Source: Phyllobates terribilis (Eukaryota). From it: a stretch of DNA of 64,000 nucleotides. How positions within the stretch are numbered: the first letter of the stretch is position 1; each line of letters starts with the position of its first letter. The position numbers and the translations under genes were made by a program. The DNA is taken from assembly GCF_046119375.1 (NCBI RefSeq), contig NW_027362764.1, positions 734,142,001 to 734,206,000 on the forward strand. The letters run 5' to 3'. The notes beneath the pieces are model-generated. The model saw only the letters and a list, made by a program, of their open reading frames with translations, searched no databases and had not been told where the DNA came from. This document shows, in pieces, positions 48,089 to 53,367 of the stretch.

Positions 48089-48442
48089 AGGGAACCAGTC
48101 ACTCGATTCATGTTGACCGAAGCCACGGGCAGCATGAATCGGATCCTGGGTGCACAATTGCAGCCAGGTATGTTTTTGTCTAAAATGCTCCAACGAGTCA
48201 GAGGAAATGTAGTTTTGGACAGATTTTTTTCCTTTGCCCACATATGGGGGAGACCCATCAAGCACCTGGAGCTCGACTAGTCCCTTATCTGCCTCATAGT
48301 CCCTTGCCGGCTCTTCAAGCTATATATTTTCTGAAGCACCAAAGCGTTTCAAAGAAAAACATACCTGTCTGCAATCATGCAGCCAGGTTCTGATTCATGT
48401 TGCCTGTGGTTTGGGCAGCATGAATTGAGTGACCTGTACCCT
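48089..48442. mobile_element. T2/Kolobok-type MITE
   Basis: TTAA flanks. TIR AGGGAACCAGTCACTC / GAGTGACCTGTACCCT. Confidence 0.8.
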
Positions 48443-48801
48443 TTAAATATGTACCCCCAAAATAAATTAAAAAAAAGCTTCCAATGTCTTTTTCTATCAA
48501 AAAGTTTGGCCTCATGTACAAGACTAATGATTTATAATTTCTAAGGTGTCCATGTGATAGACATGTGTGTCAAACATCATATGGTGGCACAAGTAGTGGC
48601 TATGGATCCAAAAAATAAGGAAAGACCGAAACTCTCTACCATTTGGTAGCAATACCCTTACATGGTCAGTCCATTCCTCCATTACTGTGAAATCAGTGTT
48701 TGAATTAATATGCAAATGAGGCTGAAGTGCTATTTGTAGATCTGAAGCCTCTGTCACTCCAGGTCAGGTCTATTCCCTGCCCAGTCTCGCTTCCTGCTTA
48801 A

Positions 48802-49228
48802 AGGGGTTGTGCACTACTTTCACATTGATGCCCTATCTGTAGGATAGGGCATCGAAGTATAATCGGCCGGGGTCAGGCACCCGGCCCCCCCCCCCCGCCG
48901 ATCAGCTGTTATCGGTGTCAGCGGCGGTGGCCGCCGGCCGGAAGTCCTTACCTGCGGTGCTTGGCCGTCAAGTTGTAGTGGCCACCTTGGAGTACTGCAC
49001 ATCCGCCTCCTATTAAACAGAATAGGAGGCGGATGTGCAGTAACAAGTGCCGGCCACTGCAACTTGACGGCCAAGCACCGCAGGTAAGCACTTCCCACCG
49101 GCGGCCGCCGCTGCCGGCACCAATAACAGCTGATCGGCGGGGGTGCAGGGTGCGGGACCCCGGCCAATCATACATTGATGCCCTATCCTATGGAAAGGTC
49201 ATCAATGTGAAAGTAGTGGACAACCCCT
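48802..49228. mobile_element. T2/Kolobok-type palindromic MITE
   Basis: TTAA flanks. TIR AGGGGTTGTGCACTACTTTCACATTGATG / CATCAATGTGAAAGTAGTGGACAACCCCT. Confidence 0.9.
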
Positions 49229-49288
49229 TTAACTGTCAGCTCCTTTGCTCGAAGGTATACAGCATAGAGGCTGTCAGTCAAGCAGTAT

Positions 49289-50566: not shown

Positions 50567-50727
50567 ACAGCCCCGGCACGAGTGATGTGCACAGCCCCGG
50601 CACGGGTGAGGTGCACAGCCCCGGCACAAGTGAGGTGCGCAGCCCCGGCACAAGTGAGGTGCGCAGCCCCGGCACAAGTGAGGTGCGCAGCCCCGGCACA
50701 AGTGAGGTGCGCAGCCACGGCACAAGT
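50567..50727. repeat. 24-bp minisatellite x ~7
   Basis: Unit GCAGCCCCGGCACAAGTGAGGTGC. Related degenerate units recur at about 51078-51120. Confidence 0.92.
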
Positions 50728-50803
50728 CATGAGCCCAGTCCCAAGAAAGACTTGGCACTCGCTTCTTTACATAGATTGAAATATTTTATTGTTCATAGAA
50801 ATT

Positions 50804-50850
50804 CCAGATTCAAAACGTTTCGGTCAGTAAGACCTTCATCAGTCATCTGA
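50804..50850 (-). ncRNA. Minimal type I hammerhead ribozyme motif
   Basis: UCAGAUGA-CUGAUGA-A-GGUC-uuacu-GACC-GAAA-CGU-U-UUGAAUCUGG. Intact core, 4-bp stem II, palindromic ACGU stem III, bulged stem I. Confidence 0.75.
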
Positions 50851-50919
50851 TGACAAGTGTCTGAGCAGTGGATACTGCAGACACCTTTCCAGTGCTACCT
50901 GCTGCAGTGTAATCAACTC

Positions 50920-50966
50920 CCAGATGACTGATGAAGGTTTTACTGACCGAAACGTTTTGAATCTGG
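50920..50966 (+). ncRNA. Minimal type I hammerhead ribozyme motif
   Basis: CCAGAUGA-CUGAUGA-A-GGUU-uuacu-GACC-GAAA-CGU-U-UUGAAUCUGG. Core at 50928-50934, GAAA at 50949-50952. Stem II retained through a U-G wobble. Confidence 0.75.
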
Positions 50967-53367
50967 AATTTCTATGAACAAAAAAATATTTCAATCTATG
51001 TAAAGAAGCGAGTGCCAAGTCTTTTTTGTACTGTTTAAAGGATTGGGGTCCTACTTGTGCAGTGTTTGTTATCATAATGAGCACAGTCCCAGCATAAGTC
51101 ATGAGCACAGTCCCGGCACAAATGATCAGTAACTGCACCATTTACTCAGTATAGTTGCTACACCTGTTTTCAATAGTCACACCAGTGACCAACAGTCACA
51201 GAAGTAATCAGCAGTTGCACCTGGATCAGTGAATGTGTACCCTTGGCTACTGGACCCTATACCAGCCCCTATGCCTAGTAGCTAAACTCATGTCTATAAT
51301 TTTCCATTAAGAACAGAGCCTGCCTTCGAGGAGCTGCAATATGTTTTGGCAGCAGTAGTGCATCATGCAGTGCTATTCTCGTTATCAAAGTTACGTAAAC
51401 CATTACAGAACCCCAATGGACCAAATTTTATTGTGTTCAGTTGGGTGCCATTTGGATCCATTATATAATGGCTCCATAACAGGGTTGTGGTTTCCATTGT
51501 GAATAAAAGCCATGATACAGGATTGAACATTAGCTGGCCATAGACATGAGATATCTATCTGCAGATCATTTGAAGAGCCATCCTCTTTTAGAAGCATCTG
51601 ATGTTAATCTTATGTTTATAGCAATCACATAAATCTGACCAAATATTAACTGGATCTGTCAAGTGGTAAAATATCTGAAGTCCATAGCCTGCTTCACTAC
51701 TCTGCCTCTTTAGGTCTCTTACTTTATGCATTGCTATCAGCTCTATAGATCTGGCATTACAGGATGAACAATAAACTAGAAAAAAAGAACGGCAATGGAC
51801 GTGTTAACCATGGGGTCCTCCTAGAATCACTGATCGGTGCTCTGTACAGATGACATGAGATTATGCAGGACTATTTAATGTCTTCATGAAATGCAACATT
51901 CATTATCAGGAGACATTTCCTTTGATCTGAACTGGGAATTTATGAATTGTGATAAAACGGACCTCCAAGAGACGAAGGTCATCCATGGTGATGGCACAAA
52001 TATTATATATCGATATATACAATATACATATATTCTGAGTCCATTCTACATAACCACATACAATATCTGAGCACTTTATCTTCTCCTACAGTGAATAATC
52101 AAATAATATTTTAAATCCGCTAACTCCGAGAGAGGCGACAGTATGACCATTAATCATAGTGCCGTAGTCTAACTCATCATGGACTGGTAACTCCAATTTA
52201 TAGGTCGATAAGTCTTGACTAAGCCCCGTTCTCCTGTGTCAGCACATCTGCAAACTGCTGCGGGTCCGTTTATAAATTATCTACAGAGGCAATGCTATAT
52301 CCCTTTTATACACGGCGCCCACATACACGACTGCTCATGTGGTGAACACGGCATAATAAAGAGATGATGTATGGGAGTTTGCATTAACTCTTAGATAGAA
52401 GAAAAAGATGAGGAACCATCGGTTTTGCCAATAGGTCTGTAAGTATATTTAGATTCCCCATGATATATCGATTCTGGGGCGTCTTTTCACAGAACTCAAA
52501 ATCAAAAAATATTAAATTATTTAACCAAATTAAATAAATGCTGTAAAAATATATATTTAAACACCAAAATTGTAATAAAAAATTTTCAAAACATGTTATG
52601 CCTTTCCAAATGGTACCATTAAAAACTAAAGCTCGGCAGGTAAAAATAAAACCTTATGCATGTTTATAGGACTTTTTTTTTTTTTTTTTACATTTTTCAA
52701 GCAGAAGATGCTATAAAAAACTTTTTCCTGAAAAGTCTTTTGAGTCGCTTTTTTTTTTGGTCGCTTACTGAACGTTTTTCAGACGGTTTTGGTCGCCATA
52801 AGTTTTTTGGAGGCTATTACAAACTCATTTTTACTGTCGTTTTCATTGAATAATGAAGAAACAGCTAGCGTTTTTTTTTAAGCAAAAACAATGGCAAAAT
52901 GATCCAAATAACACTTCTTTCGGATGTCTTTTCAACTTTACAATATGAATGAAAGTGAATGGTTAAGTATAGAGCATCTTCCGAGCATGAAACACAAGAA
53001 TAGTCAGGTCATTTCTTTTAACCGATTTTCATTTTTAGAAAGCTGAAGAGACGTTCAAAAGCCTGAAAATATGAAGTTGTTTTTACATAGAAACGCTTAT
53101 GTTTATTATTTTGAGCATTTTCTGATAGTTTTTTCAGACAGTTTCCGTAGCAGAATCCACCTGAACAAGACGTCGAGTGCATATAGCCGTACGCAGCTCC
53201 ATCGAGGGGAGAAAACAAAACAAAAAAAACATAGGTCTCATAAAATGGCAACACAAACAATAATGAAACATACAAGTCTGGAAATGCAGTCATCATACTG
53301 ACCTAGGTCATTTTTACCGCTCAGTCAACACGGTAAAAACAAAACTCAAAAAGCAATGGAATCCAAG

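Follow-up and report, generated by a model that had tools for sequence, protein, structure and literature searches.

The fold-back element at positions 50743-51078 of the window, the whole 64,000-nt stretch of Phyllobates terribilis DNA analyzed here, is best read as the product of insertion by a Neptune-type Penelope-like element (PLE), dead on arrival, with two cDNAs of the 5' end of a spliced mRNA joined head to head; we give this reading a probability of about 0.8. It is built from a unit of ~250 nt, numbered here on a single-arm reference copy, which is the pseudo-LTR (pLTR) plus tail of such a retrotransposon. Both arms of the window element are precisely intron-less, like most short copies of the family, and so were most likely reverse transcribed from a spliced mRNA, at its 5' end. 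This spliced form of the unit had been overlooked in the first-pass annotation of the window.

The element contains two inverted arms of 108 nt (50742-50849 and 50921-51028), 97% complementary with 3 mismatches and separated by 71 nt. The inverted repeat folds with -198.9 kcal/mol (z -31), a value reached by 0 of 200 shuffles. Two inverted arms with outward hammerhead motifs had been described in the first-pass annotation, and their presence is upheld here. Its size of 279 bp, however, needs revision to 336 bp, as the plus-strand arm extends ~46 nt beyond the end noted earlier, and a one-sided tail and a 15-bp target site duplication (TSD) had been missed. The left TSD copy (50729-50743, plus strand) has its final base in common with the element end and the right copy (51077-51091, plus strand) its initial two bases; there is 1 mismatch between them. 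The element itself consists of inverted unit positions 177 to 71 followed by direct unit positions 8-250 minus a 22-bp deletion, and is without an ORF. The inverted, 5'-truncated pLTR copy (50743-50849, minus strand) ends at the "short" reverse transcription start site and has its exon junction between 50844 and 50843. It is followed by an 8-nt head-to-head junction (50850-50857), the last 6 nt of which are, by reading, the reverse complement of unit positions 6-11. The direct copy, on the plus strand, comprises an exon 1 part with a 5' hairpin (50858-50926, unit positions 8-76), an exon 2 part reaching to the short end (50927-51032, unit positions 77-182), and the one-sided pLTR tail (51033-51078, unit positions 183-250). 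There is no intron between 50926 and 50927, and 63 of 67 aligned bases of the exon 1 part are identical to exon 1 of an ORF-bearing copy. One pair of the 5' hairpin shows a two-sided change, in 5 rows. The tail carries the 22-bp deletion, between GTGCA repeats, and ends at the "long" start site. Three rare variants are common to both arms, one of them private to the window. The insertion target, outside the element, was a host 24-bp minisatellite (6.7 copies at 50568-50727, plus strand), with more units on the far side at 51077-51125, much as the first-pass annotation had placed it. Elsewhere in the window, nested inverted repeats at 48798-49232 and 48117-48415 (arms of 97-99 nt, 74-88%) resemble MITE-type hairpin repeats, and positions 1-111 weakly match, on the minus strand, a GIY-YIG stretch of a PLE by tblastn (E 2e-5), the match continuing past the window start.

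We searched the genome of the species itself (10.6 Gb) for further copies. Scoring the best 40 of 346 candidates gave at least 91 matches, and pattern searches gave at least 34, 44, 47, and 46 exact matches. Altogether there were at least 120 distinct matches (58 two-arm copies, 52 single-arm copies, and 10 copies of one tail-only fragment), a count that omits loci found later and in which copy numbers are lower bounds from a partly motif-selected sample. The tail-only fragment, 66 bp long (L052-L057 and L070-L073, on C12, C46, C62, C70, C130, and C691), lies within a host repeat that later multiplied at least 10 times, with near-identical flanks. No head-to-tail array of the family occurred among the 120 matches, only a few two-copy tandems. 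In one tandem (L064:1968-2235), an unspliced fragment (positions 76-158) adjoins a spliced copy (1-184), which perhaps reflects a single event that involved two distinct RNAs. Contigs of other samples, drawn from four sequencing runs, lack 260 nt at the host-repeat site of the reference copy, in agreement with the boundaries of the unit. Runs X8 and X10 yielded high-depth contigs with a different fold-back copy and its flank (L074:4647-4989, G000:C3:473.15M); this copy is a possible source of double-stranded RNA, if our guess that these contigs derive from RNA is right.

The outer ends of the two-arm copies are fixed and their inner junctions are not. The inverted arm ends at 174-191 in 48/58 copies, the direct arm ends at 239-250 in all 58, and in 49 one arm reaches position 8 or less. 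Inner junctions were distinct in 52 cases; the repeats comprise four copies whose arms are both complete, a segmental duplicate, and two other pairs. The junction of the window element was unique. Against our reading, the independent insertions L059 and L066 have an identical inner junction. The two-arm boundaries whose sharing the first-pass annotation proposed to test are common to the copies at the outer ends but not at the inner junctions. Its expectation for an integration by-product, that copies would be termini of full-length elements with random breakpoints, is largely borne out, with variable inner junctions but fixed outer ends. A fixed fold-back or MITE does not fit the 52 distinct junctions, the asymmetric tail, and the variable TSD. 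Arms were nonoverlapping in 9/58 copies, as in twin priming on a single RNA. When two-arm copies were collected blind to the tail (n = 38), 33 were long plus short, none was short plus short, 1 was long plus long, and 4 had an eroded end. The long-plus-long copy is not counted because its end is ORF-bearing, so that a long end is matched with a short one in all 33 tail-blind two-arm short copies whose ends are both intact (binomial 2e-10 for an independent, even choice). Eighteen single-arm copies end at ~180 too. All 21 two-arm copies in which both ends were anchorable have TSDs of 10-16 bp, mostly 13-15; unlike them, most single-arm copies showed none in the search (TSD in 8 of 52 rows), which also counts against our explanation.

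The link to the parent came from two copies that continue beyond position 250 into common sequence. In ORF-bearing copies the unit is followed by reverse transcriptase (RT), a CxxCxxC linker, and GIY-YIG, in that order. A decayed full element (G000:C11:261.396-261.405M) comprises a 5' pLTR, RT, CxxCxxC linker, GIY-YIG, a long 3' untranslated region, a 3' pLTR ending at ~181-185, and an inverted arm ending at ~250; it thus has one long and one short end, together with a 13-bp TSD. A second ORF-linked copy (C3:346.132-346.137M) is 96% like the window subfamily over positions 76-250, and a further one lies at C1:193.881M. Close copies of the element body are few. Only three close copies bear an ORF, all of them decayed, and the lack of an intact, active parent among the close ORF-bearing copies of this genome is a point against our reading. 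The decayed ORF downstream of the unit shows YIDD and GIY-YIG motifs. Pfam returned GIY-YIG with E 2.8e-4 (21.6 bits, just below the cut-off of 22.6) and RVT_1 with E 0.01, and tblastn against other PLE ORFs in the genome, run with stop-free domain stretches, gave E 2.5e-33. The ORF fragment has 56 longer relatives, mainly frog RT/GIY-YIG proteins, with PF00078 and GIY-YIG names among them. The PLE character is also seen in the one-ended tail, the TSD, the succession of RT and C-terminal GIY-YIG in one ORF, and, in the C11 copy, pLTRs that flank the ORF in both direct and inverted orientation. Ahead of the endonuclease lies a Zn-finger-like CX2-5CxxC linker, accompanied by a CCHH motif, as set out for Neptune in the available text of PMC8557442; the parent is placed in this clade from domain order and linker, not from a tree, and is to that extent a putative Neptune.

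Many GIY-YIG-bearing PLE families share this genome (at least 150 matches among the best 150 of 4370 candidates scored), and neither the 30 fetched GIY-YIG matches of these 150 nor 15 longer regions from other PLE families adjoin this pLTR. L200, with an RT fragment 240 bp after the unit, was rejected as the parent because the unit there inserted into an old ORF and has a TSD to itself; the locus (L200:4937-5290) is a two-arm copy of an older subfamily, lying where a decayed PLE ORF encodes RT and flanked by a ~16-bp TSD. A contig end past position 250 was rejected as element body, since it maps to one fold-back locus plus host flank. The family was provisionally taken as nonautonomous, a view dropped once ORF-linked copies were found. 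Another Neptune-type family (L179:2733-6301, G000:C2:357.85M) has a 5'-truncated ORF between ~700-bp inverted repeats, which carry one minimal hammerhead apiece on opposite strands, and no similarity to the 250-nt unit. Several other PLE families form head-to-head ORF pairs with arms 96-99% identical (L175-L191, e.g., C5:542.31M, C11:194.37M, and C3:846.24M), in which the hammerhead descriptor gave no match.

ORF-linked pLTRs contain a GT-AG intron (793 and 749 nt) with a pyrimidine-rich 3' end between positions 76 and 77, within hammerhead stem I; an alternative stem I can come from the last bases of the intron. They also have a TATA-like TTTAAA 30 nt ahead of position 1, which lies outside the short copies. 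Position 1 would accordingly be a putative transcription start, and splicing is likewise deduced from genomic copies. Both window arms join exon 1 to exon 2 precisely, and in most short copies the exons are joined exactly and the copy ends at about position 1, although one short copy (L152) starts ~25 nt upstream of it, contrary to what our reading predicts. Exon 2 starts numbered 117: exon 1 is joined to 95 of them, an acceptor precedes 10, and 12 were other; by eye, this last group consisted of 7 joins with mutations, 3 truncated cases, 1 intron that has a deletion, and 1 false match. The acceptor-preceded starts came from 4 ORF-linked and 6 short copies. All four ORF-linked pLTRs that still hold the junction are thus unspliced, and the six unspliced short copies indicate that splicing is not required for short copies to form. 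Unspliced pLTRs are 93-100% like the spliced copies of their own subfamily and 73-78% like those of other subfamilies. In a tree of exon 2 (87 rows, 100 columns), intron-bearing pLTRs fall in three subfamilies, next to spliced copies, and a single clade was rejected (p-AU 7.5e-6), from which it follows that spliced copies arose repeatedly, once or more in each subfamily.

A PLE insertion scheme reported for Anolis accommodates these features. In vitro, according to the available text of PMC11167929, reverse transcription starts inside the RNA at two sites that delimit the tail, where the pLTR borders the ORF, and both strands are cut and extended on uncleaved RNA as template. On a spliced mRNA, at its 5' end, the same scheme would give intron-less copies with a hard 5' end and two 3' ends and, where both strands are primed, head-to-head fold-backs with variable joins. 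We suggest that the PLE protein would bind the spliced mRNA where the 5' pLTR meets the ORF, that both target strands would be nicked ~15 bp apart, and that reverse transcription would begin at two internal sites, each serving one strand. The two cDNAs would extend toward the mRNA 5' end, and repair would join them head to head. The ribozyme pair would be a passive consequence, silenced by the hairpin if transcribed. The long-plus-short pairing, the nonoverlapping cases, and the shared variants point to one coordinated event, probably on a single RNA, although the shared variants of the window arms could also come from later gene conversion. Two further points weigh against our explanation: the start sites were used without strand preference in vitro (PMC11167929), and the tail of ~68 nt compares with 30-40 bp in print.

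The same PLE origin could hold if the short copies came from intron-less nonautonomous masters, SINE-like solo pLTRs, one per subfamily, that were mobilized in trans, with fold-backs arising at integration. Short copies far outnumber ORF-bearing ones (~110 sites versus 3-4), their 5' and 3' ends are fixed, and Chlamydomonas has nonautonomous PLE partners (PMC8557442 and PMC9977147, in the parts available). Such masters would, however, have the TATA-like box outside them. As spliced copies track the intron-bearing pLTR in each of three subfamilies, exact intron loss would have to be repeated, and when 300-bp flanks of one arm per copy were compared, 31 upstream and 86 downstream, none was shared save one host-repeat pair. 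We therefore regard masters as unlikely. It is also possible that the inverted arm arose when a single cDNA primed itself or snapped back, or on an antisense template as proposed in PMC3846280, and not by target priming on two strands. Palindromic 5'-end junctions are common, four copies have both arms reaching position 1, and the window arms share private variants as copying of arm from arm would give. This leaves unaccounted for a second arm that ends at ~180, the same site as in the 18 single-arm copies, as well as the nonoverlapping pairs. A sense GT-AG intron, moreover, would not be spliced from antisense RNA, so the spliced state of the head-to-head copies disfavors the antisense-template model, as far as PMC3846280 sets it out, for this family. 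Snap-back and antisense copying thus also seem improbable to us.

The first-pass annotation had raised the idea of a separate fold-back ribozyme retroelement, alternating between a double-stranded RNA hairpin and a conformer that cleaves. Two matches to the core pattern CTGATGAAGG-N-ACCGAAACG lie in the window (50816-50842, minus strand, and 50928-50954, plus strand), against 0 expected from 100 shuffles, one per arm and pointing outward. The minus-strand motif (50805-50849) has C3 at 50842, G12 at 50821, and N17 at 50814; the plus-strand motif (50921-50965) spans the splice junction, with C3 at 50928 and N17 at 50956, after which cleavage is predicted, just where the first-pass annotation had put it. 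The features are those of minimal type I hammerheads (CUGANGA, GAAA, UH, helix II with G10.1-C11.1 and an extra base, and palindromic helix III), and the attribution to the kind found in Penelope pLTRs was correct. Rfam hammerhead models, the suggested check, did not respond: nothing passed gathering thresholds, and none of 8 matches up to E 10 was a hammerhead family. Matches to miRNA families were discarded as generic hairpin scores far below cut-off. Such minimal motifs have been detected with a custom descriptor (PMC4209133, available text). Two cores that fit the consensus, arms 97% complementary, and stems and core that are the best-kept block when subfamilies are compared would suit a distinct element; the last feature is also consistent with selection in parents only. 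Yet the window junction is unique among 58 two-arm copies, both ribozymes are spanned in 17 of these, and both cores are kept in 2. CpG sites in the core are decaying, with G12 kept in 86% of 104 arms against a column mean of 96%. The triplet is GUU in both window arms and GUC in the family, the T occurring in 2/104 arms, both of them the window's; this change lengthens a self-complementary stretch across the GAAA core (duplex of -8.5 versus -3.1 kcal/mol). The forced catalytic fold costs 40.8 kcal/mol relative to the hairpin at each of four transcript lengths, and the antisense arm is transcribed first, whichever strand is read. For these reasons, ribozyme function at the window locus is unlikely on the folding models, and the proposed switch finds no support. 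A lone unit folds no better than shuffles (z -0.23), and covariation is weak (17 rows, 1 pair with a two-sided change, a score reached by 12 of 500 shuffles). We consider a distinct element highly improbable, given inner junctions that vary and a unit that serves as terminal repeat in an RT plus GIY-YIG element; the other option in the first-pass annotation, a residue of inverted Penelope integration, matches the data.

Twin priming of L1 uses two primers at one staggered cut and gives a 5' inversion with a microhomology join; its inversion point is variable and its parts do not overlap. In the family described here, by contrast, both start sites are fixed and the arms usually overlap. Closer likenesses are found among PLEs with an endonuclease (Pen2a_Av, PMC3846280; scheme in PMC8557442), which, in the text available, have a head-to-head inverted 5'-truncated pLTR, a one-sided tail, a TSD, and a junction palindrome. 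The window element differs in having no ORF between the arms and precisely spliced pLTR copies, and the family in its ~68-nt tail and in a long-plus-short pairing that is quantified here. Opposite-strand minimal hammerhead pairs 100-700 bp apart were noted in truncated PLEs (PMC4209133) and are alike in being minimal type I with an extra base before stem II, G10.1-C11.1, and palindromic helix III; the available text of that paper describes no genomic spliced copies and gives no mechanism for the pairs. Anolis Poseidon (PAc, PMC11167929, in part) resembles our family in two internal start sites with the tail between them, where pLTR and ORF adjoin. That system is in vitro, whereas ours is of the putative Neptune clade, known from a genome, with a spliced template and start sites apparently paired one per strand. 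Non-LTR retrozymes (bioRxiv 10.64898/2026.07.22.740005, as available) are similarly short, noncoding, pLTR-derived, of type I hammerhead, and present in amphibians, but form head-to-tail tandem arrays, whereas the copies here are dispersed, single or head to head, with TSDs and fixed, nonpermuted ends.

The window feature is real and a known kind of object. Already in print, in the texts available, are opposite-strand minimal hammerhead pairs (PMC4209133), an inverted pLTR with one-sided tail and TSD (PMC3846280 and PMC8557442), two start sites (PMC11167929), and a 5' untranslated region intron of PLEs (PMC2377424). In D. virilis, the 3' terminus of the intron maps to helix I, and the ribozyme thus has a spliced and an unspliced form (PMC4209133). 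What is new here is the spliced origin and the paired start sites. Precisely spliced pLTR-only copies or fold-backs, or twin priming by PLEs, were not found in the accessible literature; papers by Arkhipova (2003, 2005, and 2006) and Repbase may already mention spliced pLTR copies.

Alone, the two-ribozyme hairpin is ordinary Penelope debris, and the interest sits in the family behind it. Such fold-backs are also an annotation hazard, as they can pass for MITEs, miRNA precursors, or ribozyme switches. The family bears on two matters in the PLE literature, as far as it was available: the retention of introns, the significance of which is stated to be unknown (PMC8557442), and the proposal that intron retention and head-to-head inversions are due to an antisense template (PMC3846280). 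It is an even bet, in our judgment, that one PLE ribonucleoprotein follows two parallel routes, with spliced mRNA leading to 5'-pLTR dead ends and unspliced RNA to full-length, intron-keeping copies, the start sites being paired in each integration. On the spliced side, only short promoter-less copies, single or fold-back, would come from the internal start sites, and every integration would pair two start sites, one per nicked strand. If true, this would account, on a sense template as opposed to antisense self-priming, for inverted pLTRs, for the one-sided tail, and for the keeping of introns, and the splice choice would also select the hammerhead stem I. The ~100 precisely spliced, sense-derived pLTR copies that exist alongside intron-keeping ORF-linked ones, together with the strict long-plus-short pairing, yield predictions testable in the existing in vitro PLE system. 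They offer a genomic clue to how PLEs build inverted ends and why full-length copies retain the intron.
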